Origin: an uncultured bacterium
GTDB lineage: Bacteria; Patescibacteriota; Minisyncoccia; Phycocordibacterales; UBA9973
DNA length: 37,472 bases
Assembly: GCA_903892035.1 (NCBI GenBank)
Contig: CAITGV010000003.1
Span: 1 to 37,472 of the forward strand
Direction: 5' to 3'
Shown in pieces: positions 6,803 through 37,472 of this stretch. The notes beneath the pieces are model-generated. The model saw nothing but the letters and a program-made list of their open reading frames with translations. It was not told the origin of the DNA and searched no databases. The position numbers and the translations under genes were made by a program. Every line of letters begins with the position of its first letter. Within the stretch, counting starts at the first letter, position 1.

Positions 6803-6815
6803 TTGTATTATTATT

Positions 6816-6997: not shown

Positions 6998-7293
6998 GGA
7001 GTGTCTTTACGATTCCGCTCGAACTTACTTTATCAAAAATTTGTGAGAATATCCACAAGCGTTCCCCGCGCGCTGAAGCGCCACCACGCGAAGCGTGGTG
7101 CTTCTGCTGAAGCAGAAGTGCGGGAAACGCCCTGCACTCCGCCACAATGTTTTGGGGGCAAAGGAGGCGAAGTGCAGAAATGCGGAACGCGAGCGAAATT
7201 TTGCGAAATGCTGGGGGTTTGGGGGAAAGTATTTCGCAAAATTCGCTTCGCGTACTTCCTGATTTTTTGGCGGGATTTTGGCGGGGCGGGCTA
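6998..7293 (+). repeat. Left long inverted repeat of island 1
   Basis: Reverse-complement match to 9174-9471. The inner 108 bp (7186-7293) is identical to the reverse complement of 9174-9281. Confidence 0.95.
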
Positions 7294-7331
7294 AAAAAAT
7301 TAAATTGTTCTTTTTAACAAAAGTAGTTTAT

Positions 7332-7934
7332 TTATGTTTGACAATTCTCAATAATTTTTTGCATTTTAATCCTACACTTATCTAAAATTTTTGATTCCCA
7401 TTCAGAATTTTTTAGCTCTCCAACATATAGATTTAATTCCTTATGTAACTCATATAAAAATTTAGTCGCGTTTATTGTCTTATTTTCTAAAAGAGATCCT
7501 CCTCTTTTTATTCGCCATCCGCCAGTTGTCTCACCTTGGTGTAAAATACCACAACGAATATGTTTGTAAAAATCTTTTTTAGAAAACTCTTTTAATGTAA
7601 TAGTCTTATTAAAAAAATCGTTAAATATTTTATCACCCCCTTTCGGGGTTTTATCCCACCCATTCTTAAATGATTGAAGTGCTTCTATACAAAGACAACA
7701 GTTCGCCATTATTGCAAATCCGCTTTTATATTCTTTCTTAAAAATATTATTCTCAAAAGTAAATGGTTTAAGATACCTACCATACAATCTACAAAAAATC
7801 ATTTTGGCTATGGCTGATTTATTTTTTTCGTTAACAAATTGCTCATAATTTTTAATCGTTACATCTTTACCATTTTCAAGTGTTGCTAAAATAATATCAT
7901 CGGTATTCGATTTATATTTTTTAGTTTTTATCAT
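7332..7934 (-). CDS. Hypothetical protein, possible HEPN-like (RxxxxH) domain
   Basis: 200 aa, helical, with IEALQSF and FYKHIRCGILHQ (R-x4-H). Confidence 0.6.
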   Translation of the reverse strand: MIKTKKYKSNTDDIILATLENGKDVTIKNYEQFVNEKNKSAIAKMIFCRLYGRYLKPFTFENNIFKKEYKSGFAIMANCCLCIEALQSFKNGWDKTPKGGDKIFNDFFNKTITLKEFSKKDFYKHIRCGILHQGETTGGWRIKRGGSLLENKTINATKFLYELHKELNLYVGELKNSEWESKILDKCRIKMQKIIENCQT

Positions 7935-7938
7935 TTTT

Positions 7939-9078
7939 TTATTTAGGCACTACCTTGAGAAAATCTGTTGCGAGTAGTATCGGAGTAGTATTACCTTGAT
8001 AGCCACCGTCTGTGTAAATATTGGAATAACTATATATACCAACAGTATAATCTCCCTCTTTAAGCGGTTTCCAAATTTTATTAAAATATATACCCGACGA
8101 AGATCCTATTGGGCAAAATTCTACTCCACCTCCATGGTCAGTGCCGTCATAATAAATAGATTCCTGTGTTGTCGGTAATGTCAATCTACCTTCCCATATT
8201 CGTACTGATATGCCACCATAGCCGTGAGTATTTGAATAAGTTCCATAAATTGCTGTAGATTCAGATGTTGATACCAGCGAACTTTTATCAATTGTTGCAG
8301 TCGTAGCAACCCCCTCCTTATAAGAAGTATTGGGGAGGTTTGTGCAGTCATTTTTGAATTGTTCAAGTGTATATGAGGACGGCGATTGTGAAATATATTT
8401 TGGGACATTCGTATTGGTATTTTGTGTTGGAACAAAAGAATTTATATCATTCACCGAAGAATTATCAGAATATAGATTATTTTGATTTTGTTGAATATCT
8501 GGTGTTGAATTAGAATTTCTTGACAATGTTACAACAAGAGTAATTATTGAAATAATTAAAAATGCAATTGCCCAATTTACTTTTTGTTGTTCTTTATCAT
8601 TTTCCTTTTTAATAACTGAAAAAATATGTGCAATAATTTTTGATATTACCAGTCCTCCTAATAACTGTCCTAGCAAACGAGGAAAAGAAACCCCGCCAGA
8701 GCTAAAGGAAGAAATAATTTCAATCAATAATCCAATGCTAATTAAAACCCAGAAAAGTTGTGATTTATTTATTGAAAAATTTGTACTGTCGTTGTTTATT
8801 GGCTTATTAGAATTTTGAGAACTTGTTTTATTTTTATTATCCTCATTTTCTTTTTGTTTATTTGATTCCTGGCGTGGTTTATAGTTAAGATCATATTGTG
8901 CCTTGTTTTTATCGTTAGAAAGAATACGGTATGCCTCGTTGATTTCTTTGAATCTCTTCTCCTTGCCTTGATTTTTATCAGGGTGAAATTGGTGCGCGAG
9001 AATATGATACGCTTGCTTTATATCCTCTTTTGAGGCATTTTGCGTAATTCCTAGAATATCGTAATAATCTTTTTGCAT
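7939..9078 (-). CDS. J-domain (DnaJ-type) membrane protein with C-terminal extracytoplasmic domain
   Basis: KDYYDILG...FHPDKN...FKEINEAYRILS, then three hydrophobic segments and a Ser/Thr/Asn-rich region. Start placed at ATG 9078, just after the promoter. Confidence 0.88.
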   Translation of the reverse strand: MQKDYYDILGITQNASKEDIKQAYHILAHQFHPDKNQGKEKRFKEINEAYRILSNDKNKAQYDLNYKPRQESNKQKENEDNKNKTSSQNSNKPINNDSTNFSINKSQLFWVLISIGLLIEIISSFSSGGVSFPRLLGQLLGGLVISKIIAHIFSVIKKENDKEQQKVNWAIAFLIISIITLVVTLSRNSNSTPDIQQNQNNLYSDNSSVNDINSFVPTQNTNTNVPKYISQSPSSYTLEQFKNDCTNLPNTSYKEGVATTATIDKSSLVSTSESTAIYGTYSNTHGYGGISVRIWEGRLTLPTTQESIYYDGTDHGGGVEFCPIGSSSGIYFNKIWKPLKEGDYTVGIYSYSNIYTDGGYQGNTTPILLATDFLKVVPK

Positions 9079-9087
9079 ATAGCCTTT

Positions 9088-9116
9088 ATTATACAAAAAT
9101 AAGCTTAAAAAGCCAA
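9088..9116 (-). promoter_or_regulatory. Sigma70 promoter of the J-domain gene (near-leaderless)
   Basis: TTGGCT, 17-nt spacer, TATAAT, 9 nt before the ATG. Confidence 0.6.
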
Positions 9117-9173
9117 TTTATTTAGATACCATAAAATTATGAAAATTTTATGGTATCAATTTTTTCTTTTCCA

Positions 9174-9471
9174 TAGCCCGCCCCGCCAAAATCCCGCCAA
9201 AAAATCAGGAAGTACGCGAAGCGAATTTTGCGAAATACTTTCCCCCAAACCCCCAGCATTTCGCAAAATTTCGCTCGCGTTTCGCATTTGCATTTCTGCA
9301 TACCACATCCTTTTTAAAAGATTGTGTGGTGTGCAGAGCGTTTCCCCGCACTTCTGCTTCAGCAGAAGCTCTGTGCTTCGCACAGAGGCGCTTCAGCGCG
9401 CGGGGAACGCTTGTGGATATTCTCACGAATTTTTGATAAAGTAAGTTCGAGCGGAATCGTAAAACCACTCC
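9174..9471 (-). repeat. Right long inverted repeat of island 1
   Basis: Reverse-complement match to 6998-7293. Confidence 0.95.
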
Positions 9472-9480
9472 AATAAAAAA

Positions 9481-10167
9481 CTACTTTGTTATTGTATTAG
9501 TCTGCGAAGGAATAGGTTTTGGAAGTAAATCTTTAAGAGCAGGCATTGCCTTCTCGATGTCATCTAGACTTGTAAAACCACTAAATATCTCTTTATTGAT
9601 GATGAGCGCAGGAAGTGTATTTGGTACTTTATAGGTTGAAATTAATGCTTTAATTGCAGAAAGATCTAGATTATAGTCAAAAGAGTAAACTCTAAGTCCA
9701 GGATATTTCTCACGAAGCGCAGTGAGTACATAACCCTGATTTACACAATCAGTACAATCAGTTTTTGTTGAATAGAAATATAGTACGAATACAGATTTAA
9801 AACCACAACGCTGACTAATTTTCTCCATCAAAAGATAATCTTTAATTTCTAGAAGTGAATAATATTTTTTCAAATATGTAACATCAGAATTATTTCCAAG
9901 ATTTTGATCACTATATTCAATTTTTTCTCCAAGGGAATTCAACTGATCAGAAAGGAAAGATTTATCTACATCCTTACAAGACAAATCTTCAAGTAAAGAA
10001 AACTGCGTTTCAGATGAAAGAATATCGAGAGAAATATTGTCCTGAATGCTTTTCAATTGTTGAATTTTTTTACTACCAAAATAGTTGCTTACATAACCAG
10101 CAGTTACAAAAAGCAAAGCTGAAATTATAAAAACAAGAAGATATTTTTTCCAATCAGGAGTTTGCAT
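9481..10167 (-). CDS. Membrane-anchored hypothetical protein with thioredoxin-like C-terminal domain
   Basis: N-terminal TM helix; VLYFYS..DCTDC (CxxC) and a downstream LPALIIN cis-Pro-like strand. Confidence 0.7.
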   Translation of the reverse strand: MQTPDWKKYLLVFIISALLFVTAGYVSNYFGSKKIQQLKSIQDNISLDILSSETQFSLLEDLSCKDVDKSFLSDQLNSLGEKIEYSDQNLGNNSDVTYLKKYYSLLEIKDYLLMEKISQRCGFKSVFVLYFYSTKTDCTDCVNQGYVLTALREKYPGLRVYSFDYNLDLSAIKALISTYKVPNTLPALIINKEIFSGFTSLDDIEKAMPALKDLLPKPIPSQTNTITK

Positions 10168-10170
10168 AAA

Positions 10171-11436
10171 TTACAAAAGGTTTCTTTCCGCTGCCCAATT
10201 CCCTGCACCGCGTGAAAAAATTACATTATATAAAGCTTTTCCGAGCCAAAAGGGTGCAACTGTAAATGATAAAATATAAAAATAAACAATACTCATATTT
10301 GGTCGCATTTTACCTTCAGCCATATTTTGCCCAATTAAAAGTGAAGTAATAAGCGTTACTGCAAGCAAAACTGCCACAATATTTATCAAACTTGTATTTA
10401 TATAAAACAAACTAAAATTTCCCATGTGAAAAAAATTATGAAAACCGATAATTTTAAATTCAGTTATCTTATGAATTGTAAAAGTAATTATCTGATATAC
10501 AAACATTAACGATATATATATTACTGAGATAATTGAAATTATTCCGGCAGGCAAAGCAAAAAAACCAATATTGCCATATTTTTTCTTAAACAATAATTCT
10601 TTATAATCTTGAACGTTTTTCAAAAAACCATATATCCAACGCACACGTTGACGGTAAAGTTTAGCCACTGTGTTTGGAGTCACAGTATAGACATAAGCAT
10701 CTGGACAATGCTCAATTTTATAATGATTTTTTTGCATTCTTAAAGCAATTTCTTGATCTTCTGTATTGTGTGCTTTTCGAAATGGACCAATATTTTCAAA
10801 TACTTCTTTTCTATATATTGAAAAAGGCCCAGGTGTAACATACACTGCGCCAATAAAACTTTGAACTTTTTTCATGAAAATACCAAAATTATAGTCTGCT
10901 CGCTGGGCTTTTTGAATTAAATTTTTTGGTTCATAGGCAATCACAGCAGGACAAACAGCCATCGCACTTGAATCCTTTTGAAAATAAGTCATCATACGAT
11001 TCAGGGCTTCTGGGTGCACAAAAGAGTCAGCATCAAGCCCACCAATAAATTGACCACGAGCTTTTGAAATACCAAAATTCATTGCAGTATGTTTACCTCC
11101 ATTTTCTTTTTTATATACATCAATATTTGGAAAATTTTTAAAACTCTCTAATACCAAAAAAGTATTATCTCTTGAGCCATCGTCGATGAGCATTATTTGC
11201 AATTTGTCTTGCGGATAATGTAAAGCAAGCAATGATTCAACGGTTCTCTTTACTGTTTTTTCTTCATTATAGCAAGGCACAATAATAGAGACCTGAGGAT
11301 AATACGGCAATGTAATATTGTCTTTTCGAATTTCAATATTTTTTCTTTTTTCTAAAAATGTAACGATCAAAAACACCTGTATATATACGGCAAAAAAGGT
11401 TAAAATATAGAAAATTACATCTGGAATATGTGACAT
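10171..11436 (-). CDS. Processive GT2 glycosyltransferase (PgaC/IcaA/cellulose-synthase-like)
   Basis: IVPCYNEE, DDGS, DAD, TED and QRVRW motifs, flanked by TM helices. Confidence 0.92.
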   Translation of the reverse strand: MSHIPDVIFYILTFFAVYIQVFLIVTFLEKRKNIEIRKDNITLPYYPQVSIIVPCYNEEKTVKRTVESLLALHYPQDKLQIMLIDDGSRDNTFLVLESFKNFPNIDVYKKENGGKHTAMNFGISKARGQFIGGLDADSFVHPEALNRMMTYFQKDSSAMAVCPAVIAYEPKNLIQKAQRADYNFGIFMKKVQSFIGAVYVTPGPFSIYRKEVFENIGPFRKAHNTEDQEIALRMQKNHYKIEHCPDAYVYTVTPNTVAKLYRQRVRWIYGFLKNVQDYKELLFKKKYGNIGFFALPAGIISIISVIYISLMFVYQIITFTIHKITEFKIIGFHNFFHMGNFSLFYINTSLINIVAVLLAVTLITSLLIGQNMAEGKMRPNMSIVYFYILSFTVAPFWLGKALYNVIFSRGAGNWAAERNLL

Positions 11437-11475
11437 AAAAACAGCCCTAATTATAGCATTTTAGGGCTGTTTTTA
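11436..11475. terminator. 15-bp inverted repeat, probable terminator overlapping the GT2 promoter
   Basis: taaaaacagccctaa, 10-nt loop, ttagggctgttttta. The loop region carries TGcTATAAT on the minus strand. Confidence 0.6.
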
Positions 11476-11491
11476 CAAATTCCTTGAAATT

Positions 11492-11527
11492 CCCTCTCTC
11501 CTTTACAGGGAGAGAGTTGGAGAAAGG
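11492..11527. repeat. REP-like half element
   Basis: ctctctcc-tttaca-gggagagag-ttggagaaagg, similar to 24322-24357. Confidence 0.6.
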
Positions 11528-11531
11528 TGCA

Positions 11532-11813
11532 TTACATTGCCTTTGGAGCCTCAGGCATGACACCCATACACTTTTTACAGTGGCAACCTCCGAAAGCCTT
11601 CATGGCAGCACATAGACCCACCACAACGTAAACGATAGATTCTACAGTACCTGAAAAACTAAAAATTGTATGTACTAGATTAAATTCTGATCCAAAAAGA
11701 GCACTAACTCCTACTATTCCCCAATTCAAACCTCCGACGATTAGAAGCCATTTTGCAATAATTGCAGTTGTACACTTTGAACCACATTTTCCTCCTTCGC
11801 ATGTTCCTGTCAT
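11532..11813 (-). CDS. DUF378-family small membrane protein with Cys-rich termini
   Basis: LLIVGGLNWGIVG...FNLVHTIF...IVYVVVGL signature. Confidence 0.85.
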   Translation of the reverse strand: MTGTCEGGKCGSKCTTAIIAKWLLIVGGLNWGIVGVSALFGSEFNLVHTIFSFSGTVESIVYVVVGLCAAMKAFGGCHCKKCMGVMPEAPKAM

Positions 11814-11942
11814 ATAATTTTTGCGTGTTTGTTTTAAAAAATAAAACGCCCACGAGTTAATATAATAAATTGACCTGTATGTCTATTATACCAAGTAAAT
11901 AATTTGGGGCAAGTTTGTTGATAAAGTAAACTTTCTGATATA

Positions 11943-12755
11943 ATGCATAAACATTATAAATTAAAGAAAATACATATGGATGATGAACAAATAGTAATAG
12001 TAGAAAATATTTCACCCGTGGTAGAAAACAAAACGAATGGGTTGTCTGTACCTACTGCAATTATTATTGCAGGACTTATGATTGCAATATCAATATTTGC
12101 AACATTTGGACATTTTGGTGGAAATGATGGAGTAAAAACAATAGCTCAAAGAGCTGGTTTAAATATTTCAAAATTTAATACCTGTCTTGCAAGTAATAAA
12201 TATGATGCAAAAATTACTGCAATGCATAAAGAAGGTGAAGCAATCGGCATCGATGGCACTCCGTTTTCTGTAATTATTGCCAAAGATGGAACAAAAGTTC
12301 CAGTTGTTGGCGCGCAAGAGTACAATACATTTAAGGGAATTATCGATGGACTTCCAAAAGTTCCAACACTTGACCCAAGACTTGCAGCATATCATTTAGA
12401 TAAAGTAAGCCCAGTGGATCCAACAGAACACATATTTGGAAATCCAAACGCTGATATAAAAATAGTTGAATATTCTGATACTGAATGTCCATTTTGTAAG
12501 CGTATAGAACCAACACTCAAAAAACTTGTTGCTGATTACGATGGAAAAGTTGCTTGGGTATATCGCCACTTCCCGCTTGATTGTAATGACAGTGTGGACC
12601 CAAGTTGCCAAACTCTTCACGCAAAATCCCGCCACGAAGCAGTAGCGACAGAATGCGCAGGTGAGCAAAAAGGTAATGATGGTTTTTGGAAATATATCGA
12701 CGCACTATACACCGCCACTCCATCAAACGACGGCTTCGACGCGCAAATGCTGTAG
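11943..12755 (+). CDS. DsbA-family thiol-disulfide oxidoreductase, circularly permuted, membrane anchored
   Basis: The EYSDTECPFC active site is at aa 182-185, but the GIDGTP cis-Pro loop is upstream at aa 102-107. The start could be the Met at 11976. Confidence 0.88.
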   Translation: MHKHYKLKKIHMDDEQIVIVENISPVVENKTNGLSVPTAIIIAGLMIAISIFATFGHFGGNDGVKTIAQRAGLNISKFNTCLASNKYDAKITAMHKEGEAIGIDGTPFSVIIAKDGTKVPVVGAQEYNTFKGIIDGLPKVPTLDPRLAAYHLDKVSPVDPTEHIFGNPNADIKIVEYSDTECPFCKRIEPTLKKLVADYDGKVAWVYRHFPLDCNDSVDPSCQTLHAKSRHEAVATECAGEQKGNDGFWKYIDALYTATPSNDGFDAQML

Positions 12756-12780
12756 GCAGATTGTAAAAAAATATAGATTT

Positions 12781-13272
12781 TTACTCTACTAAAATTTTTA
12801 TAACTGGCAAGTTTGATTCTTCAATTTCTTTTTCCAGAAAATTTTGTATCGTTTTTGCATCATCAAATGAAATATCTTTTCTGAGGTTTATTCTTTCTTT
12901 CAGCAATTCGTCGTTAATTAAAAGATATACAACAAGCTCAGTGCCCACCGCAATACTAGTACCAAAAGCAGGTTGACCAGCTTCTACATATGCTCTCTTG
13001 GCGCGTAGCTCAAGTCTTTTTTTGCGATTTTCCGGAGTAAGCGGCGCATTGTAATAAAAAGATTTTTCTTCTTCAGTTAATTCCGGGGCTAAATCAGATA
13101 TCTCTATTCCTTGCGATATATTCTTGAGCAGAGTTGTTTTTCCGGTGCAGGCAGTACCGACAACTGAAATACGTTTATCCTTGTTTTCCTCCAAAACTAA
13201 TCTAAGTTTTTCCAAAGTTTTATTGCGATTTTCAAGTTGATTTCCTGTCTCCGGTTCTTTATTAAAATTCAT
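12781..13272 (-). CDS. Small P-loop NTPase/nucleotide-kinase-like protein
   Basis: ISVVGTACTGKTT Walker A; VVYLLINDELLKERINLR lid-like motif. Confidence 0.7.
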   Translation of the reverse strand: MNFNKEPETGNQLENRNKTLEKLRLVLEENKDKRISVVGTACTGKTTLLKNISQGIEISDLAPELTEEEKSFYYNAPLTPENRKKRLELRAKRAYVEAGQPAFGTSIAVGTELVVYLLINDELLKERINLRKDISFDDAKTIQNFLEKEIEESNLPVIKILVE

Positions 13273-13509
13273 AGATTCTCATAGTATACACAATTGTAAT
13301 ATAAAAAACACATTCCACTATCTTTACGCTATAGCGTAGTGATAGTGAAGTGTCTTTTTATTGATTATTCTAGACCTAGTTGTTTTTATTTTTATATTCG
13401 ACTAGATCTTGCCTAGTCACTTTCCCCCTGTCAACCTGCCAGGTTGACATATTGGTACCAATTTCCGCATATGCGAATTTTAGTACCACTAGTAAGTACT
13501 CCCCCATTA

Positions 13510-14022
13510 CTACTGATTTGCTAGTAAGGGATTCGGGTAATTGAAAAAATCTTCCGCACGCTGACGAACACTCCCAAGAAACATCTCTGGTTTTTCATCC
13601 AACGCTTTTAAAAGTTCTTCTTCAGAAAACCATTTAATAGCTTCTACTTCGTCGTCTTGTTTTACTAGAGGATAGTCGCTTTTTATAAAGGCGACATATG
13701 ATTGAACAAAATAAGCATGACTAGTTGTGCGGCGTGATTTTTGCCACGGAATAAGTTCTGCTCCCTTAAGTCCAATTTCTTCTTCTGCTTCTTTTACCGC
13801 ATTTGAATCATAGGTTTCCCCTTCTTCAACACTACCAGCAGCAGCGGGACCCCACACACCTGGACTGTCTTTTTTAGTGAACGCACGTTGTGCGAGCAAG
13901 ACTTCTCCTTTTTCGTTACCAACCCAAAGACTGGTAATACGAGTTATGCTTCCAGGAATTCTATCTTTTCGGTCTTCATAACCTATTATCTCATCTGACT
14001 CATTTACGATAGGAATTCTCAT
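13510..14022 (-). CDS. NUDIX hydrolase (IPP-isomerase-like subfamily)
   Basis: VLLAQRAFTKKDSPGVW; Nudix box GSVEEGETYDSNAVKEAEEEIG. Confidence 0.88.
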   Translation of the reverse strand: MRIPIVNESDEIIGYEDRKDRIPGSITRITSLWVGNEKGEVLLAQRAFTKKDSPGVWGPAAAGSVEEGETYDSNAVKEAEEEIGLKGAELIPWQKSRRTTSHAYFVQSYVAFIKSDYPLVKQDDEVEAIKWFSEEELLKALDEKPEMFLGSVRQRAEDFFNYPNPLLANQ

Positions 14023-14027
14023 AAATT

Positions 14028-15320
14028 TTAATCAAAATAATTTTTTAGTCTTGTGATTTTGTCATGGGTGCGGAGTTTTTCGTGAACTTTGGCTTCGATT
14101 TGGCGGATACGTTCGCGAGTGACGCCAAATTCTGCACCGACTTCTTCGAGGGTGTGTTGAACAGAGTCTACGAGGCCGTAACGCATTTCAAGGATTTTGC
14201 GTTCTTTTGGAGAAAGCTCATCGAGTACTTCTTTTATTTGATCAGAAAGAATGCGACGAGAAGAATCTTGGTCAGGGCGAAGGATTTTGTCATCGGCGAT
14301 GAATTCACCGCGAGTAGATTTTTCATCATCGTCCCCTATTGGTTGCTCAAGAGAAATTGTATCTTGATTGATATTTTCAATGATATGAATTTTTTCCACT
14401 TCCACGCCCATCTCTGTAGCAATTTCTTCTGCAAGTGGTTCACGACCGAGGTCTTGAGAAAGACGGCGAACTACCTGTTTGTATTTTGAAATAGTTTCAA
14501 CCATGTGCACTGGAATACGAATTGTACGACTCTGGTCGGCTAGAGCACGAGTTATAGATTGGCGAATCCACCATGTAGCATAAGTTGAAAATTTGTAGCC
14601 TTTTGTCCAATCAAATTTTTCAACTGCTTTAAACAAACCGAGATTTCCTTCTTGAATAAGGTCTAGAAGTGTAAGATCACTCGAGCGCCCAACATATTTT
14701 TTTGCAATTGAAACCACGAGACGAAGGTTTGCGCGAGCAAGTAAATTCTTTGCCTCTAAATCCCCTTTTTCAATTCTGCGAGCCAATTCTTTTTCTTCAG
14801 CTGCGTGAATAAGCGGGTATTGTCCAATTTCTTTCAAATAAATTTGAATAGAATCATAAGCAGGTTGGTCTTTACCAGTACGAGTCATATCACTATCTGC
14901 CTTCACAGCGTCTAGGTCAAGCAAGTTTCCACCCTCCAAAACATCTACTCCAGCGATAGAAAATTTCTCATACAATTCATCTAAAAATAAGATATTATTT
15001 TCAATTTCAGGAAAAACTTTAAGAATTTCATCGTAAGTGACAAAACCACGTTTCTTTCCCTTTTCAATAATCATATCTGCCTTTTCTGCCAATGACATTA
15101 ATGGTTCACCTTTTTTACCTTTTGTATTTTTCTTTACTTCTACTTTTGTTTTTTTTGTAATTATTTTTTTAACCGCCTTTTTAACTATTATTTTCTTTTT
15201 CGCAACTTTTACAATCTTTTTAACTTTTTTTGGTGCAACTTTTTTCATAGTCCTTTTTACAACTTTTTTTACTTTCTTAACTATTTTCTTTTTTGTTTTT
15301 TCTTTTTTGTTTTTTTTCAT
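14028..15320 (-). CDS. rpoD: Primary RNA polymerase sigma factor (sigma70/SigA)
   Basis: [35 protein letters not shown] and [19 protein letters not shown] motifs; follows dnaG. Confidence 0.97.
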
Positions 15321-15355
15321 ATATAAATAATTTAATTAATAATTTTTAATAAAAA

Positions 15356-17122: not shown

Positions 17123-17157
17123 ATTTTTTATTGTTTACGCAATAGCTTGCGCGGAAA

Positions 17158-24248: not shown

Positions 24249-24404
24249 AATACAACCCATCCCTAACCCTTCCCTTATCAAGGAAGGGAAACTGCTAAGC
24301 ATTTTCTGTATTTGCATTTCTCCCCTCTCCTTTACAAGGAGAGGGGTTGGGGTGAGGTTCTTACCTTCCTTGATAAGGGAAGGTGCCCGAAGGGCGGATG
24401 GGTT
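24249..24404. repeat. Composite REP/MITE-like element
   Basis: 24249-24296 is the exact reverse complement of 25633-25680. Further hairpins: cccctctcc/ggagagggg and ccttcc-ttgataa-gggaagg. Confidence 0.85.
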
Positions 24405-24424
24405 TTCTTTCCGCTAGGTCTTGC

Positions 24425-25102: not shown

Positions 25103-25117
25103 ATATTGCACTATAAC

Positions 25118-25154
25118 ACAAAACCCCTACGACACAAGGTCGGAGGGGTTTTGT
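25118..25154 (-). terminator. Probable intrinsic terminator after khpA
   Basis: acaaaacccct...aggggttttgt stem, followed by T-rich sequence on the minus strand. Confidence 0.6.
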
Positions 25155-25174
25155 AAAAAAAACATTGTGAACAA

Positions 25175-25501: not shown

Positions 25502-25587
25502 ATTGTATCGTATACGTTTGTAATTTTTCGTGCAGTGTTCGACCTAGAATTACTGCTTGTCTACATTATACATTTTTTCATAATAAA

Positions 25588-25680
25588 AATACAACCCCCT
25601 TAATCCCCCTTATCAGGGGGAAATAAATGCTAAGCAGTTTCCCTTCCTTGATAAGGGAAGGGTTAGGGATGGGTTGTATT
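25588..25680. repeat. REP/MITE-like palindromic element
   Basis: Terminal repeats aatacaaccc/gggttgtatt; inverted relative of 4590-4682. 25629-25680 is identical to 29134-29185. Confidence 0.88.
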
Positions 25681-25691
25681 GGAGTGGTGGT

Positions 25692-26000: not shown

Positions 26001-26053
26001 GTCCCCCATCTTAACAAATAGGGGCAAAATGTCAAATATGCTATGCTACCTGT

Positions 26054-28018: not shown

Positions 28019-28024
28019 ATTTAA

Positions 28025-29074: not shown

Positions 29075-29185
29075 ATAACCTATCGTTCATGATAGGCACC
29101 TGTAGACGGCCCCCCATCAAGGGGACTTTAAAAGCTAAGCAGTTTCCCTTCCTTGATAAGGGAAGGGTTAGGGATGGGTTGTATT
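29060..29185. repeat. REP/MITE-like element between convergent genes
   Basis: Terminal repeats aatacaaccca (inside the capA 3' end) and tgggttgtatt (touching the smc stop codon). Confidence 0.8.
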
Positions 29186-31452
29186 TATTTCGCAATCTGC
29201 ACCGCCTCATCAAGCTTGATTGACAGAAGTTTGGACCCTCCATCGGCACCGATGGTGATACCGTAGAGGATGTTTGCGCGTGACATAGTCTCACGGTTGT
29301 GGGTGACGACGATGAGCTGAGAATATTTTGAAAGGTTTTCAAGCATATCGCCATATTTGCGAGAGTTTGATTCGTCGAGCGCAGCGTCGGTCTCATCGAG
29401 CACGAGAAATGGCGGAGGGTTTACCTGTGAGATAGCAAACAGTAGCGCTATGGAGGTAAGCGAACGCTCACCACCGGAAAGCATATGTAAATCTTTTACC
29501 TTTTTATGAGGAAGCGAAACGTTGATTTCAATTCCCCTTTCAAATTGCAATTCTGCATCTTCGTCGACTTCAGAGTCTTCGTCTTCCGTCATATTTGGAC
29601 GCTTGTGTTCAACGACGACAGAAAGAAAAGCACTTCCCCCGCCAAACATAAGAGAGAAAAATTCTTGAAATTGTTTATTAATTTTTTCTACTCCAGTTTT
29701 GAAATCCATATCAAGATTTGATTTCAATTCACGAATTAAAATTTGAAGTGACGAAATGCTTGCTTTTATGTCTTCTACTTCATGCGCAAGAAAAGCATCG
29801 CGCGCAACTGCTTCATCGTGCTCTTTTATGAGCTCTCCTCCGCTTCCTCCTAAGTCTTCAAGTTTAATTTTTATTCTTTCAATTTTTCTTCGCAAATCTT
29901 GTTGAATTATTTCTACATTTACTCCCTCTGCATCAGAAAAATTTTCCACAAATACGCATGACTCTGGGCCTGAGAGCACACTCGCCTCTTTGAGTTCATT
30001 GTCGAAGTCAAAACGTGCCTTATTTATTGCTTCATCTTCTAGTGAAAGAATTTGAAGTTTTGATGAAAGCTCATTTTTCTTGGCTTTCACTTCATACAAA
30101 GCTCTCTCTGCATCACGCATTTTATATGCTTGTTCGTCAGCTTGCGCACGAATTTTTTCTATTTCTTCACGAGTTTTATTTTCATCTTCTTCAATTTTTA
30201 CAAGTTCGGCAGTCAATGCATCTTTTGCAGAAATATATTCTTGCATTTTTTCCTGATTATTATTTGTATCATTATTTTCTACAATTCTTTCACTGCGATT
30301 TTTCTTTGCTGATACAAAAGTATCAAGATTCTCTTTCATTGAATTTAAAGAATAGTGAATTACTGCCACATTGTCTTCCATAAGAGCACTTTCAATTAAC
30401 ACTGTAAGTTCTTCGAAAAGAACTTCCACTTCTTCAAATGGTACAGCTTGTGACTTAATTTCTGCTGGTGCACTTTCTTTTTGATTTGAAAGAGCTTCGA
30501 GCATTCCTTCTAGGCGACCAATTTTTCTCCCTATTTCATCTTTTACAGAACGCAAAGAGTAAAGTGTTCGCTCGTGATTTGCAATCTCATTATTGAAAGA
30601 ATTTTTTAATGCTTGGGAATTGTCATCTTGATATTCATTTAATTTTTGCTCAATCTCAAGGAGTGCATCTTGGATAGTTTTTTTCTGCTGAGAAAGTTCC
30701 AAACTTTTTGTTTTTATGCGTGTAGCTTCACGAGAAAAATATTCACGATAATAGTCTTTGAGTTCAAGGCGCATGCCACGAGCTTTTTCAAATTTTTCTA
30801 CCTGCTTTTTCAAAAAAGTAATATGCGGAGCAATTTCTCGACGAAGTGATTCTACTTCTTTTAAATTTGCTGTAGTTTTTTCCAATTTTCTTTCACTTTC
30901 TTTTATTTTATATTGATAAACTTTAAGTCCCAAAGCGTCTTCTATCATCACACGACGGTCTTTTACTGAAGCATTCAATACTCGGTCTGCTTCACCTTGT
31001 GAAATGATATGGTGACTCGAACTACCAATATTTACTGACGCCAGAAGTTCCATAATGTCTTTCAATCGAACTTCTGTGCCATTTATCTGATACACATTTT
31101 TTCCATCACTATATACTTCGCGAGAAATTGTAATTTCATCATAATCTAAATGTACATCTTTTAGTCCTCCAGAAAAAGAAAAAACTTTTTTGCTATTGTC
31201 GAAAGACATTGATACTGATGCACGCGAAAGAGCACTCAAATGTTTTGAGCCTTTAAAGATGAGGTCTACTCCGCCTTTTCCGCGAAGTGATTTCATCGAC
31301 TGCTCTCCGAGCACAAATCGTATTGATTCAACAATATTTGATTTACCAGAACCATTTGGACCCACTACAGAAGTGATAGGGCTATTGAAAACCAAAGGTG
31401 TTTTCTTTGCGAATGATTTAAAACCGTTTAATGTAAGACTTTTTAAATACAT
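29185..31452 (-). CDS. smc: Short SMC-family ATPase
   Basis: Walker A GPNGSGKSN, Q-loop IISQG, LSGGERS signature, Walker B FLVLDETDAALD; downstream of rnc. Confidence 0.88.
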   Translation of the reverse strand: MYLKSLTLNGFKSFAKKTPLVFNSPITSVVGPNGSGKSNIVESIRFVLGEQSMKSLRGKGGVDLIFKGSKHLSALSRASVSMSFDNSKKVFSFSGGLKDVHLDYDEITISREVYSDGKNVYQINGTEVRLKDIMELLASVNIGSSSHHIISQGEADRVLNASVKDRRVMIEDALGLKVYQYKIKESERKLEKTTANLKEVESLRREIAPHITFLKKQVEKFEKARGMRLELKDYYREYFSREATRIKTKSLELSQQKKTIQDALLEIEQKLNEYQDDNSQALKNSFNNEIANHERTLYSLRSVKDEIGRKIGRLEGMLEALSNQKESAPAEIKSQAVPFEEVEVLFEELTVLIESALMEDNVAVIHYSLNSMKENLDTFVSAKKNRSERIVENNDTNNNQEKMQEYISAKDALTAELVKIEEDENKTREEIEKIRAQADEQAYKMRDAERALYEVKAKKNELSSKLQILSLEDEAINKARFDFDNELKEASVLSGPESCVFVENFSDAEGVNVEIIQQDLRRKIERIKIKLEDLGGSGGELIKEHDEAVARDAFLAHEVEDIKASISSLQILIRELKSNLDMDFKTGVEKINKQFQEFFSLMFGGGSAFLSVVVEHKRPNMTEDEDSEVDEDAELQFERGIEINVSLPHKKVKDLHMLSGGERSLTSIALLFAISQVNPPPFLVLDETDAALDESNSRKYGDMLENLSKYSQLIVVTHNRETMSRANILYGITIGADGGSKLLSIKLDEAVQIAK

Positions 31453-31453
31453 A

Positions 31454-32149: not shown

Positions 32150-32156
32150 TTCGAGA

Positions 32157-33053: not shown

Positions 33054-33092
33054 AATGTCTTTTAAAGCCCAAATTTTTTGAGCTGTTAACTA

Positions 33093-33341
33093 TTATTTAG
33101 ACTCCTCTTTTTTGCCTTCTTTCTTTGCAGTCTTTGCTTTGATTTTACTCTGTTTCTTTTCTACTTTCTTAACCAAATCAATGACTTTTCTTCCACGGTA
33201 CATGCCACATTTCTCACACACTGTATGTGAAATATGCATCTCTCCGCAGTTACTGCACTTCGAAAGATTCTTTGCCTTTAGGGCGTGATGAGAACGTCTA
33301 TTTGCCGTATGAGAACGGGTATGTCGCATTCGTATAACCAT
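33093..33341 (-). CDS. rpmF: 50S ribosomal protein L32
   Basis: RRSHHAL, CSNCGE..SHTVCEKCGMYRGR. Confidence 0.96.
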   Translation of the reverse strand: MVIRMRHTRSHTANRRSHHALKAKNLSKCSNCGEMHISHTVCEKCGMYRGRKVIDLVKKVEKKQSKIKAKTAKKEGKKEESK

Positions 33342-33391
33342 AGACAATAGTATAGCTATTTTTCACAAAAAAGCAAATGGTGGATAAAAAT

Positions 33392-33685
33392 GAGTCCCTC
33401 TTAAACAAGGCTCGAACTTACTTTAGCAAAAATTCGTAAGAGTACAAACTCTAGCTAAGTGGTACGCTCCACGACCGTCGTTCATCCGAGTTCATACTAC
33501 GCTCGCACTCTGTGCCAAATCTGTCGCCCGCTTCCGATTGAGTACAATCGCCTACTGGGTCAATCGGGAGTACCCTCACGATGTCCGCCCTGTCACGGAT
33601 ATTTTTCTGCTGAAAAATTCCGCGACCCCGACTCGGCTCGTCAGCCTCCGTCTCTAAAACGCTCCGAGCACTCGCGTTTTAGCCC
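33392..33685 (+). repeat. Left long inverted repeat of island 2
   Basis: 33423-33685 matches the reverse complement of 37237-37472. Begins gagt-N14-gctcgaacttacttta, like the island 1 arms. Confidence 0.93.
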
Positions 33686-33905
33686 TCGCCATCCCCACTC
33701 CACGTTTTGCATATGAGAGTAAGTGGTGTCGCTTTCGCTTCTGTACTTCAGTGACTTCGACAACGTCGGCGCTCATCCGTTCGCCATGGACGCTCCTAGC
33801 GGAAATGTCCGAGGCGGAGATGCGAATGCTTGCCCCAGTCTCCGCTTGAGTACAAGCGGAGACTCCCACCCGTGCGCGCAGGCAGGTGCCTCCCTTATTT
33901 TAAAA

Positions 33906-34379
33906 CTAGATTTTAGAATACGAAACCCCTTCTCCAGTCTTTGAATTCTGTTTGATTTTGTTTTCCTTTTTTAGTATCTCTAAATATCGAGTTGCGGTTG
34001 CATCAGATGCATGCAAAAGTTTCTCGACTTCGTCGTTTGTGATACTTGTTCGCTTCGCGAACAAGGTCATGAGTAAATCAAGTTTCTTTTGTTTCCGAGA
34101 CTGGATAGCACTTCTCGCTTTTGCGAGAAGTGAGCGGGCAAGATCGCGGGGAGAGATACTTGAAGACTGCGGAGGCTTCGCCTCCGCAGTTGGTTGAGGT
34201 TGAGATACTGGTTCGCCTAACGGCTCACTGACTGGAGCAAACGGCTCATTTACGCCCACTTGAGCCGTTTCGGTTGTAGGAGTTGGAATGGATTCAGGAG
34301 GAGAAATTGGGTCGGAGACTGCGCCTGACGGCACAGTTGAGGGAGAGGTTTGTGGGGCTTGGGATTGGTCTGGGGGCAT
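33906..34379 (-). CDS. Pro-rich protein with C-terminal winged helix-turn-helix
   Basis: ITNDEVEKLLHASDATATRYLEILKKENKI is a DeoR-like HTH; the N-terminus is low-complexity. Confidence 0.75.
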   Translation of the reverse strand: MPPDQSQAPQTSPSTVPSGAVSDPISPPESIPTPTTETAQVGVNEPFAPVSEPLGEPVSQPQPTAEAKPPQSSSISPRDLARSLLAKARSAIQSRKQKKLDLLMTLFAKRTSITNDEVEKLLHASDATATRYLEILKKENKIKQNSKTGEGVSYSKI

Positions 34380-34471
34380 AGGTAGAGTATATCAAAGTTA
34401 ATATATTAGAAAAAGAAAAAGCTCGAACATTTCTGTCCGAGCTTAATTTTTTGATTAAAGATTTATGTTTA

Positions 34472-35380
34472 TTAAATCTTTTTGTTTACCCACCACTTCA
34501 CTGTAGCTAGTGAAGCTTTTCTTCGATTAATCATTGTAGGTATGCCGAATCGAATTAATATAAACGAGACGACAACTTCAAGAATAGTATAAATCCATAT
34601 GCCCAAAGGTGAGCGAAAACCCGATATCCCATTTCTGTCTCTTAAACATAATCCATATGGCGTTTTCCAAACATCGAATTCATTATTGGATAAATAACCA
34701 TTATCTAAATCAATCGTTTGATCAACTCTCTCAACAAATAAATCTTGTTTAAGATTATTCCTTGAAAATAGTGACACGATAAAGTCATTACCCGTTAGAC
34801 TTTTTACAGTATCAAATCCATTAGATACTTTACTTATTTCACCTCTACTACCTGAGAAAAAGTTTAAATTGTTAATATAGAGAAAACTCAAAGGTAACAA
34901 GCACAACATGATTCCAATCAGTCTAACTGGAATGGTTGAGTTTCTTGCTTTAAAGATTCCGTCATTAAACAATTGTTTTCCTCTGTTGAATAAAAGAAAG
35001 CTAAAGTACCAAACCGTACCGACTGATAATGCTAGTAGTCCGTAAGATTTACTACTCAAGTACATTTCTCGCATATCAACGCCTTTTATTTTGGCAATGA
35101 TAAACAGAGTTGCAATACCAAGACTTGCCATACCGATAAAAATACCAGTGAGGCTACACATCAGGAATGCGGAATTTCTTCCAATTCCTTTTTCCATTTT
35201 TACAATTTCATTATTGACTACATCTGCCATAAGAGCAGAGCCAATAGCAAAAGTGATTACAAGACCGCATGCAGCGATATTGCTTAGTAAGTTTGACAGG
35301 GCAATGTTTCCTACTACGAAGGAAGAAATGCCAACGATCATTGTGATCGCGAATACGATGAGAACAATTTTACTTTTCAT
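34472..35380 (-). CDS. Hypothetical multi-pass membrane protein
   Basis: 302 aa with about six hydrophobic segments. Confidence 0.75.
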   Translation of the reverse strand: MKSKIVLIVFAITMIVGISSFVVGNIALSNLLSNIAACGLVITFAIGSALMADVVNNEIVKMEKGIGRNSAFLMCSLTGIFIGMASLGIATLFIIAKIKGVDMREMYLSSKSYGLLALSVGTVWYFSFLLFNRGKQLFNDGIFKARNSTIPVRLIGIMLCLLPLSFLYINNLNFFSGSRGEISKVSNGFDTVKSLTGNDFIVSLFSRNNLKQDLFVERVDQTIDLDNGYLSNNEFDVWKTPYGLCLRDRNGISGFRSPLGIWIYTILEVVVSFILIRFGIPTMINRRKASLATVKWWVNKKI

Positions 35381-35510
35381 TTTTTTTTACTTATTTAATT
35401 ATTATTAGTTTATTTAATTACGTTACTTTATGCTCCGCTTGGAAGGACAAAGTAACGTAATTAACTACCAATAAAAACAGTATTTTCAAAGAACCCTTAT
35501 ACTTACTTAT

Positions 35511-35540
35511 ATTATAGCATATATAAGGCATAAAAGTCAA
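35511..35540 (-). promoter_or_regulatory. Sigma70 promoter of the 302 aa membrane protein gene
   Basis: TTGACT, 18-nt spacer, TATAAT with a TG extension. Confidence 0.65.
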
Positions 35541-35544
35541 TAGT

Positions 35545-35584
35545 AAAGCAAAAGTACCTTGTATTTACAAGGTACTTTTGCTTT
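35545..35584. terminator. Intrinsic terminator after the coiled-coil gene
   Basis: 19-bp perfect inverted repeat aaagcaaaagtaccttgta/tacaaggtacttttgcttt. Confidence 0.8.
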
Positions 35585-35633
35585 CTAAGTGACTTGGAGC
35601 TGTGCTTAGTACTACTAATATGTAATTTTAAGA

Positions 35634-37109
35634 TTATTTCTTCTTTGAAACCTCGATAATCACTTTTTGTGCTTCTTCAAATTTTTTCTTTGCTTTATTG
35701 TATATATCAAGTATTTCTTGCTTTTCTTTTGAAAACTCTCTTGTTTTAACTTGTTCTATATAAGTCTCTAATTTTTGTACCAACTCGCCAATCGTTATGT
35801 CATTTTGAACTCCGCCAATTTTCTCAAACTTTTTAGTTAAAAGATTTTCTTCATAGCCTGGAATTTCCCTTATCAACTTTTCAACACCTGACAAGTCTTT
35901 GGAAAGACTTTCTTTCTCTTTATAGAACTTCTCAGCATTTTCCTTATCTTCAAAACGAGCAATTTGTCCTTCTAAATATTCCTTACGACTGTTCCATTTT
36001 TTCTTTCCAAATATACCACCTAGTGTACCAGGCTCATTTTTTAGATGTTCTTCAAGTTCTTTGCTAACTTCAGTCCATTTTTTTCTATCTTCCGTTGACA
36101 AAAAATTTCGTGAAGTTTCTCCCCAACTTTTTTGAGCCTTTTCATATGCTTCATGCTGAGACATTGGCATAATTTCGTAATCATTTGTCCACAGCTTTTC
36201 TTCGCTATCTTTTATTCCTTTTTTGAAGTCAGGCAGATTTAAGGACAAATAAATTATATCCTTTTTCTCTTTTTCAATAGAATTCTTTTCGGTTTCAAGC
36301 GCGCCGAGTGCATTGTAGTTACCAACAGTGTCGCCAAACGTATTACGAGTATTTGCCAGTATAACAGTCATTTCTATTTGTGGTTCAACAAAATTACGCA
36401 GAAGTTTTTTTGTTTCTTCATTAAGTCCGCGAGGATCCTTATCTATGATTTTCAACACAGACTCTTTAAGAAGCTCTGTTATTTCTTCAGGGGAATTTTG
36501 CTGCAATACTCTTTTTAACTTATCAAAATATATGTTACCGCTCTCCCATGTTCCTTTCTTGAATTTATCTACATCCACGTAACCATAGCTAACTTGTAAC
36601 AGCTCTTTCTCTATCGCTTGTCTTTTTTCTTCATGAGCCTTTTCTTTGCCCTCTTTTGTTTGCGAAAAAAGTTCGTTAACTTGCTTTTCTTTTTCAGGAA
36701 TAGAAGTTTCAAGACTTTTTATTTCTTCATTTAAATTACTTACTTCTTCTTGCAGATTTTTCCACTCTGTTTTTTCACTAGAAAAAACTTCGTCAAAACC
36801 TTCTTTGGTGTGCAAAATCTTCTCAACTTCTTCGTCTTGGCGAGCTTCTTCAACTGCTTTGTGTCCTGTTTTAATAATACCTCCTCGTTGTGATTTTATT
36901 TCAGTTAAACGTTTCAAAATTTCATCTTTGCGCGTCAATAGACCAGAAAGAGCTTGTTTTTCGGTGTTGTATTCAGCAACTCTTTGTATTTCGGCTTCTG
37001 CTTCACTCGTCTGTCTCTGATTTTTCTCATTTTGGCGCTTTTCTTGCTCCTTTTGCTTAAGGGCTTTAATCTTGGCAAGGCCTGATTCATTTTGAGTCAC
37101 ATTTTCCAT
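35634..37109 (-). CDS. Hypothetical Glu/Lys-rich coiled-coil protein
   Basis: Long ORF. Start placed at ATG 37109, downstream of TTGCAA-17-TACAAT (37148-37120). Confidence 0.8.
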   Translation of the reverse strand: MENVTQNESGLAKIKALKQKEQEKRQNEKNQRQTSEAEAEIQRVAEYNTEKQALSGLLTRKDEILKRLTEIKSQRGGIIKTGHKAVEEARQDEEVEKILHTKEGFDEVFSSEKTEWKNLQEEVSNLNEEIKSLETSIPEKEKQVNELFSQTKEGKEKAHEEKRQAIEKELLQVSYGYVDVDKFKKGTWESGNIYFDKLKRVLQQNSPEEITELLKESVLKIIDKDPRGLNEETKKLLRNFVEPQIEMTVILANTRNTFGDTVGNYNALGALETEKNSIEKEKKDIIYLSLNLPDFKKGIKDSEEKLWTNDYEIMPMSQHEAYEKAQKSWGETSRNFLSTEDRKKWTEVSKELEEHLKNEPGTLGGIFGKKKWNSRKEYLEGQIARFEDKENAEKFYKEKESLSKDLSGVEKLIREIPGYEENLLTKKFEKIGGVQNDITIGELVQKLETYIEQVKTREFSKEKQEILDIYNKAKKKFEEAQKVIIEVSKKK

Positions 37110-37236
37110 AGATGCCGAAATTGTAGCATTTTCCAAAATGTGTTGCAATTTTTTATCCACCGCCCGCCCCTCCCGCATCGCCCATACGAATCAAAAAGAA
37201 ATCCCGCCGACTCAAAGAAGAATGGAAAAGCGATGC

Positions 37237-37472
37237 GGGCTGAAATGCGAATACTTGGAGCATTTCAGAGACGGAGGCTGACGAGCCGAGTCGGGGTCGC
37301 GGAATTTTTCAGCAGAAAAATATCCGTGACAGGGCGGACATCGTGAGGGTACTCCCGATGAGAAGCGGGCGACAGAATTAGCACAGAGTGCGAGCGTAAT
37401 ATGAACTCGGATGAACGACGGTCGTGGAGCGTACCACTTAGCATTGTTTGTACTCTTACGAATTTTTGCTAA
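37237..37472 (-). repeat. Right long inverted repeat of island 2 (truncated)
   Basis: Reverse-complement match to 33423-33685. Confidence 0.93.

Follow-up and report, generated by a model that had tools for sequence, protein, structure and literature searches.

The stretch analysed here, called the window, comprises all 37,472 nucleotides (nt) of contig C3 (CAITGV010000003.1) in the genome assembly GCA_903892035.1 of an uncultured bacterium of the phylum Patescibacteriota; the genome, coded G000, consists of five contigs with 806,886 bases and about 36% G+C. The window contains two islands of accessory genes, each between long, GC-rich inverted arms, together with one arm of a third. On balance we regard these islands as probable cargo modules of a compact family of integrative elements that is run by large serine recombinases (LSRs) and forms site-specific arrays at the ends of tRNA genes.

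Island 1 (D) is found downstream of its landmark, tRNA-Thr(tgt) (6816-6891, forward strand). Read from outside to inside, its left arm (6998-7310, forward) consists of a terminal sequence that we call site S (6998-7051), a cloverleaf (7059-7130), two more hairpins and an inner GGCGGGGCGGGC end. The right arm (9157-9471, reverse) is 87% identical to the left one and has a middle hairpin with a different, fully compensated stem. In a BLAST search against the whole genome the pair aligns with 87.2% identity over 320 nt (E 8e-108); within it, 6998-7127 matches 9342-9471 (130 nt, 91%) and 7178-7304 matches 9163-9289 (127 nt, 95%). Two genes lie between the arms, both on the reverse strand. Cargo proteins were scanned for Pfam families, as were the LSRs described below. 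The protein of 200 aa (7332-7934) has no Pfam family, and that of 385 aa (7939-9096) carries an N-terminal DnaJ (J) domain (E 1.4e-22) followed by a remainder without a confident family.

The CTCCA that closes tRNA-Thr (6887-6891) is found again at the outer end of the right arm (9468-9472). A preliminary description of this DNA, made from the letters alone, had seen no clear target-site duplication; this short direct match to the tRNA end is to be added to it. Between the tRNA gene and the island are 106 nt that include a partial direct copy of the 3' half of the tRNA (6915-6965, forward; 88% identical to 6840-6890), 24 nt past the intact gene. This copy is probably a scar, left by a previous integration or by a module since lost; it looks like a classic displaced attachment fragment, yet the LSR modules elsewhere duplicate just 3-7 nt of the tRNA. 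Stop-free frames cross the GC-rich arms, and one open reading frame (ORF) of 103 aa (within 6983-7294, forward) spans the left arm.

The left arm of island 2 (E; 33392-33905, forward) begins with site S (33392-33445). Its part 33423-33685 is repeated in the right arm (37150-37472, reverse), from whose outer end the contig end removes about 45 nt. This pair aligns with 85.2% identity over 263 nt (33423-33685 against 37237-37472, E 2e-85, again by BLAST against the whole genome), with sub-blocks of 96% (33454-33534 and 37362-37442), 94% (33563-33685 and 37237-37359) and 100% (33423-33449 and 37446-37472). An extra GC-rich inner module of about 215 nt in the left arm (about 33681-33895, forward) occurs otherwise only in the far arm of island C on contig C1. 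The cargo consists of three ORFs on the reverse strand, for 157 aa (33906-34379), 302 aa (34472-35380) and 514 aa (35634-37178), none with a Pfam family; for the largest, no relative was found among 150 other genomes of the order (E 1e-10).

At the other end of the window, a third cargo module (G) is represented by its right arm (1-141, reverse), which the contig start truncates; site S occupies 94-141 and the cloverleaf cluster 21-91. The arm that pairs with it forms the end of contig C5, where it directly follows an LSR module at tRNA-Leu(taa). The segment 19-141 is 80% identical over 116 nt to 9337-9452, the outer part of the right arm of island 1. Both islands share their outer ends (7017-7051 and 33410-33444, 89% over 35 nt), and an inner end of the GGCGGGGCGGGC type, visible directly in the sequence, is common to several arms. 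The preliminary description had named all of this, namely the two arm pairs, the third element and the shared outer and inner ends, and our measurements bear it out. Its view of the cargo as accessory is likewise supported by the four proteins without a family and the single J-domain protein.

Recombinase modules and a common site at tRNA ends

None of the genome's six Resolvase-domain genes and neither of its two tyrosine recombinases is located on contig C3. The earlier statement that no integrase is visible is therefore correct for this contig; it fails for the family, since the same genome encodes three LSRs. Comparison of the genome with itself revealed four more repeat-bounded islands (A, B, C and F). 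Island A (C1:138-1882) adjoins the 3' end of tRNA-Ala, and the arm beyond it is truncated where contig C1 starts. Island B (C1:477833-480538) adjoins the 3' end of tRNA-Thr(ggt) and is followed by island C (C1:480536-488074), a cargo module with arms that share 94-100% identity with the arms of island 2. Island F (C5:119918-121787) adjoins the 3' end of tRNA-Leu(taa), and the arm after it has the sequence of the window's first 141 nt in reverse complement. Copies enclosing a serine recombinase, which the preliminary description had proposed to look for, are thus present as islands A, B and F: each holds an ORF of 514-549 aa directed at its tRNA, with a cargo arm directly beyond the module.

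LSR-A contains the Pfam domains Resolvase, Recombinase and Zn_ribbon_recom, all above cut-off, and LSR-B and LSR-F are full-length relatives of it (44-45% identical). The nearest solved chains are SPbeta YokA (E 3.7e-12) and then the A118 integrase. The inverted repeats of the LSR-B module are 89% alike. The LSR ORFs read on through the proximal repeat, even through the antisense tRNA; this repeat-encoded tail is about 70% conserved between LSR-F and the LSR G023_C9 of a relative, and some of it may be genuinely coding.

Both ends of the window can be connected with these modules. Its first 141 nt recur in reverse complement as the final 141 nt of C5; its final 141 nt, in turn, equal those of C1, where they form the far arm of island C. 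Such overlaps resemble the word length of an assembler, so that the contigs are read as breaking in these repeats. Positions 1-141 are the far arm of the cassette that follows LSR-F on C5. The shared sequence makes it very probable that islands 2 and C meet arm to arm, the right arm of island 2 leading into the far arm of C, which gives the order tRNA-Thr(ggt), LSR-B, C, E, rpmF. Two of 13 relatives' loci have tRNA-Thr(cgt) and tRNA-Thr(ggt) at most 1.2 kb upstream of rpmF. For the left end, synteny was sought through the 123-aa gene at 902-1273; no tRNA was found in 13 relatives' loci, and the gene belongs to a multi-copy family.

The same organization recurs widely. Among 41 related genomes compared for the LSR and site S (coded G001 onward), 24 contain an LSR match. 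The order tRNA, inverted repeat, LSR gene, inverted repeat was seen in all 13 modules that could be inspected. The repeats measure 115-171 nt and overlap the tRNA end by 3-7 nt; 11 of these 13 modules have a called tRNA, and a further, 14th module adjoins the end of another cassette. Long contigs of G006 (whose genome is a single contig), G015 and G021 (two copies) enclose complete two-module copies, in which the cargo arms measure 198-203 nt and are 100% identical; such copies also occur in G022 and G039. One LSR module of G021 (C6) is flanked by a cargo arm on both sides. In a sample of 401 genomes of the phylum, 77 contain the LSR subfamily (E 1e-70), and nine of 11 loci fetched from other families of the phylum show the layout of tRNA, repeat, LSR and repeat, at tRNAs for Ile, Leu, Lys, Gly, Val and Glu. 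Of the 106 LSR matches in the phylum, 17 are 100-600 nt from a contig start.

All LSR modules have one orientation relative to the tRNA (0 of 23 flipped). Their inverted repeats are perfect in 13 of 23 cases. Where a cassette adjoins an LSR, its arms are 97.8-100% alike (7 of 7) and in four of the seven perfect, and cassettes without an LSR on their contig have decayed arms, as in G026 and in the G006 cassette at tRNA-Ser(gct). Exceptions to this trend are the arms of island 2 (85%), the repeats of LSR-B (89%) and one G021 module (77%). A scan of IMG/VR with LSR-F returned two contigs with an N-terminal LSR fragment of 122-136 aa, 66% identical and among unrelated neighbours (L086, L087), which resembles a truncated remnant; these contigs contain no arms, S or tRNA, and no free form was found. 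An exact 27-nt arm word had no match in JGI metagenome contigs.

Directly past the distal repeat, all 13 relatives' modules carry a conserved sequence of about 45-50 nt (aligned by eye), with an invariant GAA inside a TTCGAAC-like core. This is site S, the outer end that the window's arms share. A profile built from the relatives' copies matches beside the distal repeat in eight of nine phylum loci, none of which had been used in building it. The arms' outer ends are therefore the very site that follows an LSR module, and both ends of the window run into LSR arrays, so that the description of the family as enzyme-less does not hold. With the sequence-only model R1 of S, 68 sites were detected in 21 of the 41 relatives' genomes, 20 of them being training sequences. 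Nine convergent pairs, each with both members on one contig and 2.3-4.9 kb between them, account for 18 of the 68; another 19 are at most 400 nt from a contig start and face outward. In G006, which is complete, one pair was detected besides three single matches, two of them weak. In G000 each of the seven sites detected is part of an arm pair or of an arm truncated at a contig end, unlike the mostly unpaired, randomly oriented copies that the preliminary description had named as evidence against its proposal.

Read outward, S shows a T-loop-like TTCGAAC, about 20 nt of further sequence and then the last 4-6 bases of the array's tRNA; CCGCA of tRNA-Ser, CTCCA of tRNA-Thr and a partial match to CACCA of tRNA-Tyr are repeated at the far ends of cassettes in this way. 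Counted from the TTC anchor, the repeat boundary is reached after 12-15 nt in the tRNA and after 16-20 nt in S. Within single modules these distances differ by 4 nt (nine modules), 5 nt (five) or 6 nt (one), counted in the 15 of 21 modules where both anchors were correct; the other six were left out, one mis-anchored by the script and five without an anchor. Serine integrases place their zinc-ribbon motif 5 bp nearer to the centre in attB than in attP (PMC3783163). The observed shift of 4-6 nt matches this rule, so that the stretch from the T-loop to the tRNA end fits a host-type half-site and S an element-type half-site. At the mirror position of the LSR-side repeat, the word T[TC]NGAA is present in eight of 20 arms versus 0-3 of 20 control windows, which lends some support to this reading without being general. 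As a candidate for the repeat boundary or crossover, the GGCTCGAAC motif in the 3' end of the LSR gene was rejected: the boundary falls on it in seven of 13 modules and 12-30 nt beyond it in the other six.

Insertion, cargo exchange and arm structure

The order of a GT2 gene, a 228-aa gene and tRNA-Thr(tgt) is conserved among relatives, which allows occupied and empty sites to be compared. From the tRNA to the 228-aa gene the gap is 71 nt in G008, 166 nt in G003 and 167 nt in G016, versus 2589 nt in G000. The empty sites that the preliminary description had suggested at this junction, with the tRNA joined to the 228-aa gene, are thus found in three relatives. In G026, from another family, a cassette with S at both ends and different genes occupies the same tRNA-Thr(tgt) site; no LSR was detected in that genome at 1e-20.

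Similar arms enclose unrelated genes. Arm identities between cassettes with non-homologous cargo are 93% (G006 and G021b), 96-97% (G021a and G022), 87.5% (G023 and G026) and 94-100% (islands C and E); G021a and G022 are the one cassette pair with alignable sequence on the cargo side, and there the orientation is the same. The body of the right arm of island 1 is 94.8% identical over 250 nt to the cargo arm beside an LSR module at tRNA-Arg in G023, a member of another genus. Similarly, the LSR-A module together with S and tRNA-Ala is 96.07% identical over 1882 nt between G000 and G023, with unalignable flanks; in terms of sequence comparison, this demonstrates horizontal spread of the module between genera. 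Arm pairs are 100% alike within the G006 and within the G021b element and 93% alike between the two elements, so that the two arms of a pair evidently evolve in concert.

Among the cargo of other cassettes are a P-type ATPase for metal transport and a small biosynthetic cluster, and one cassette carries what reads like a type I restriction system, judged by the order and sizes of its ORFs only. Island C (cargo at C1:480872-487235; L045:4373-10736) encodes a KAS III-like condensing enzyme, an AMP-dependent ligase, an NAD epimerase/dehydratase, an SRPBCC cyclase-like protein, an AurF-like di-iron oxygenase and membrane proteins. At tRNA-Thr genes of G024 there are structured inserts, rich in GC and without cargo, of about 330 nt (L029, G024:C12, about 385-720) and about 110 nt (L094, G024:C8, upstream of rpmF). 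The longer one starts with an exact inverted copy of the tRNA T-arm and acceptor and ends with a direct copy of the tRNA 3' end. These inserts may be scars or minimal members of the arm family.

The arms have 45-57% G+C versus about 36% for the genome and fold strongly (-125.8 kcal/mol), the two strands reaching z -4.4 and z -7.7 relative to shuffled controls. In Rfam 15 only tRNAs pass; outside the tRNA family the arms score at most 19.6 bits, where the threshold is 55. Hairpin modules make up the arms as a mosaic, and some are present in one arm and missing from its partner. The arms of island 2 carry unlike extra inner modules, and a 49-nt indel separates arms of G000 and G023. Behind S, many arms contain a four-way junction of 71-74 nt, the cloverleaf, in which an outer stem closes three abutting hairpins. 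Its variants were folded one by one, rather than by counting pairs on a MAFFT alignment, and all nine distinct variants adopt the same fold (z -5.3 to -8.2). Every helix exists in two to four sequence versions with pairing kept, so that compensatory changes affect all four helices. For example, the middle hairpins of the two island 1 arms differ at five compensated positions, and the outer stems of the G026 and G031 cloverleafs are completely different. Because both strands fold alike, the fold cannot separate a role as DNA from one as RNA. In one cloverleaf of G021 (C5; L008:3361-3432) the loop of the middle hairpin is inverted, with TTCG for GAAG on an unchanged stem, a flip of the kind expected from hairpin-mediated template switching.

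A model for the arrays and its alternatives

In the integrative model that we favour, the full element consists of the tRNA 3' end, an LSR module, site S and a cargo module. The LSR gene is directed at the tRNA between inverted repeats of 95-171 nt starting in the last 3-7 nt of the tRNA, and the cargo module holds 2-7.5 kb of accessory genes between inverted arms of 200-500 nt with S as their outer ends. S and the first 25 nt or so of the LSR-side arm would form an attP-type site, and the tRNA from T-loop to 3' end with the downstream DNA would serve as attB. The crossover would fall within the final bases of the tRNA gene, which would thus survive strand exchange intact, and modules could stack outward, as each far end would regenerate a pseudo-tRNA end. 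Positions 1-141 and island 2 would then be the edges of two arrays whose LSRs lie across contig breaks (LSR-F on C5, LSR-B on C1). Island 1 would be a recombinase-less orphan beside tRNA-Thr(tgt), inserted in the past by such an enzyme, presumably in trans, and its arms (87%) would now be diverging. Of the earlier alternative between a trans-mobilised cassette and an invertible segment, the cassette part remains plausible, in the form of a family served by an enzyme encoded elsewhere, and the inversion part found no support, with a single orientation in 23 out of 23 modules.

Several known systems share parts of this architecture. LSR-dependent integrative elements and prophages (A118/LI, SPbeta with SprA/YokA, phiC31, Bxb1) have an enzyme of the same superfamily with the same domain set and a short specific site beside the gene. 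The offset of the recognition motif between host-type and element-type half-sites fits their 5-bp rule (PMC3783163) as well. In contrast to these elements, the target here is the extreme 3' end of many different tRNA genes, the modules are bounded by inverted repeats of 95-500 nt, often perfect, with a second, inverted presumed attP inside, and they are tiny (about 1.7 kb for the LSR module), with no phage or conjugation genes seen. Like SCCmec-type cassettes, LSR-driven cassettes stand in tandem at one site (tRNA-Thr(ggt), LSR-B, C) and some have no recombinase (D, G026 and the G006 orphan), a mixture also known from SCC arrays. Two of the three LSRs have CcrB as their best NCBIfam match, but no equivalog is reached, as scores remain far below the cut-offs (CcrB 77-116 bits versus 900, CcrA 59-85 versus 700, CcrC 39-78 versus 900). 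The site is moreover a tRNA end rather than rlmH, and long inverted arms take the place of short direct repeats. Tycheposons of Prochlorococcus are tRNA-targeted integrative elements that likewise bring cargo into streamlined genomes; the part of the report available to us (10.1101/2020.12.28.424599) gives a tyrosine recombinase for 910 of 937, an LSR for the rest, and tandem junctions. Unlike the present family they mostly use tyrosine recombinases and many have replication genes, and the same part of that report mentions no inverted-arm architecture.

Similarly, in Gin, Cin and Hin segments a serine recombinase gene adjoins a segment with inverted repeats and dyad sites at its outer ends. 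Those systems combine small invertases with an enhancer at fixed loci in phages or flagellar operons and occur in both orientations, whereas we find a large enzyme with Recombinase and zinc-ribbon domains, insertion-polymorphic loci and one orientation. Integrons resemble the arrays in their promoter-independent accessory cassettes, structured recombination sites and an enzyme encoded elsewhere in the array. They employ a tyrosine integrase and directly oriented attC sites of 57-141 nt; here the arms are inverted and about 300 nt long, and the genome's two tyrosine recombinases lie neither on C3 nor beside any arm-bounded island. Insertion sequences (IS), miniature inverted-repeat transposable elements (MITEs) and composite transposons differ from a layout with arms of 200-500 nt and only a 4-6-nt match to the tRNA end. 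No transposase was seen in or beside the islands, with the DDE and HUH families not searched systematically. In casposons, which occupy a tRNA 3' end, long terminal inverted repeats enclose the genes for a Cas1 casposase and a family B polymerase; neither protein turned up in the Pfam scans of the cargo ORFs, which were not aimed at them. The feature comparison agrees with the preliminary description, which had found no match to IS, MITE or integron layouts, and full-text searches of the literature (main texts, not supplements) found no description of this layout. We file the system as a variant of LSR-driven site-specific cassette arrays, a new one, whose mechanistically puzzling feature is the obligatory long inverted repeats.

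A number of observations weigh against the integrative model. The three public read runs with the locus, from one study, all gave short-word contigs ending inside the arms. These contigs contained no recombination product, circle or alternative junction; over positions 1-20000 of the window in particular, where they again break in the arms, there was no inversion, deletion or circle joint at island 1. A circle joint would, in addition, read identically to the internal junction. Conservative site-specific recombination does not explain the long, often perfect inverted repeats around each module. The junction between LSR and cargo is the exact reverse complement of the joint expected from excision of the whole array, so that the element carries a second, inverted copy of the presumed attP. 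This copy too is unexplained by conservative recombination, and canonical serine integrases would not recombine it with attL or attR. The symmetric motif expected in the LSR-side half-site is present in only eight of 20 arms, and a gapless scan of the junctions for dyad symmetry gave 10-13 of 24 matches with scattered best centres, a signal too weak to locate the crossover. S could itself be the crossover site, at its TTCGAA core. No directionality factor was identified. Two of the 13 relatives' modules (in G034 and G001) have no called tRNA, nine of the 21 genomes with S contain no LSR of this subfamily at E below 1e-88, and island 1 stands off from its tRNA by the stretch with the half-tRNA copy. 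The join of C3 and C1, finally, depends on the shared 141-mer and on synteny in only two of 13 loci; when the regions upstream of rpmF in G024 and G005 were compared with this genome by tblastx, nothing matched, leaving the join without gene-level support.

The inverted S sites at the outer ends of the arms, directly adjoined by a serine recombinase gene, recall an invertible segment. S and inverted S would then be the crossover sites of a Gin/Cin/Hin-like switch in which the neighbouring LSR flips the cargo and thereby its expression, possibly in coexistence with integration. The 0.6-kb inverted repeats of the phage P1 C segment likewise have crossover sites at their outer ends. The conservation of S with its invariant GAA, some dyad symmetry around TTCGAA and the concerted evolution of arms, perfect within the G006 and G021b elements, would fit frequent exchange of this kind. 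We nevertheless think inversion unlikely, given an enzyme of 514-549 aa rather than an invertase of about 190 aa, the uniform orientation of the 23 LSR modules and of the alignable G021a/G022 pair, and the lack of an inversion joint among the short-word contigs, a comparison of low power; nor would inversion alone account for empty sites, cargo turnover or transfer between genera. Many of the same arm features could also belong to self-standing structured repeats, whether MITE-like or repetitive extragenic palindromic (REP)-like DNA or a structured RNA, terminator or insulator, that bracket accessory genes by chance and are only secondarily linked to LSRs. Hairpin modules are gained and lost, as the indel between G000 and G023 illustrates, the cloverleaf is kept by compensatory changes in all nine variants with one loop flipped, G024 has its cargo-less inserts, and the complete genome G006 contains three single S matches besides its pair. 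Yet the arms match no Rfam family, their copies are few and almost all paired or contig-cut, including all seven in G000, their outer end co-varies with LSR lineage and tRNA, and no DDE or HUH transposase was seen beside them, without a systematic search for either. This explanation therefore appears decidedly doubtful.

Two further proposals address the inverted repeats themselves. If single-stranded DNA were taken up or transferred, its paired arms might fold, and the inverted internal junction might act as a splint that rebuilds a double-stranded attachment site. The reverse-complementary junction, the perfect repeats of 13 of 23 LSR modules and arms of four of seven LSR-adjacent cassettes, and the compensated stems and flipped loop expected of hairpin-forming DNA would be in line with this, and integron attC sites and the CTX phage attP are analogues of folded substrates. 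Serine recombinases, on the other hand, cut both strands of duplex sites, and we know of none that uses folded single strands; the geometry, when worked through, gives broken products, and no result of our analysis supports the idea, which we judge very improbable. That the repeats are chimeric joins made by the assembler could be suspected from contigs of this and many related assemblies ending in arms. It is hardly credible in view of the same layout inside long contigs of many independent assemblies, among them a one-contig genome, of diverged arm pairs (77-95%) that cannot be assembler copies, and of independent contigs from a public run that cover arm and cargo pieces without differences.

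For whatever part the inverted repeats may play in the integrative model, we considered inversion switching, a 2-micron-like flip, folded single strands and transcription insulation as hypothetical roles. A bolder extension, offered tentatively and to our mind rather unlikely, would see here an undescribed, phylum-wide class of minimal mobile elements, in which an LSR would act together with an attachment region that is doubled and inverted and with long arms whose structure includes a four-way junction conserved as DNA or RNA. Cassettes would be flipped, swapped or captured as units in a natural recombinase-mediated cassette exchange, with the arms as structured cofactors or folded-strand substrates.

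The hosts have genomes of 0.5-1.3 Mb with few recognised mobile elements. In such organisms an LSR family present in about one fifth of the sampled phylum genomes would be a main route of accessory-gene flux, and its arrays would explain frequent assembly breaks beside tRNA genes, such as those near 17 of the 106 LSR matches. The predicted pairs of S and a named tRNA end could provide integration tools for organisms without any, and new serine integrases with natural tRNA landing sites. The rule that long, concertedly evolving inverted repeats frame every module does not follow from known serine-integrase mechanics.

Other recombinases and repeats of the genome

Another LSR, beside tRNA-Ser (C1:150511-151956), was considered as a family member and excluded, as it has no inverted repeats. 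It is 34% identical to LSR-A and directed at a tRNA-Ser called with anticodon ACT. In its region (C1:148620-152165) a small helix-turn-helix-like ORF lies upstream and a tyrosine recombinase gene 1.3 kb before; this is probably another kind of integrated element. Contig C4 (1678 nt) is essentially one ORF that by eye resembles an IS5-type DDE transposase, without arm sequence or a link to other contigs.

Directly after tRNA-Lys(ctt) in the window, a perfect palindrome with 27-nt arms (538-593) is probably a terminator. A second, unrelated family of repeats of about 45-95 nt, with a hairpin stem of the type CCCTTCC...GGAAGGG, is placed between core genes in both orientations. Members occur in the window at 4590-4632, 24249-24304, 25625-25680 and 29120-29186, at C1:64099-64191 and C2:30479-30574, and at other positions; a strict motif count gives six copies in the genome. 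Those starting at 24249 and 25625 form an inverted pair 1320 nt apart, and these repeats resemble REP- or terminator-type elements.

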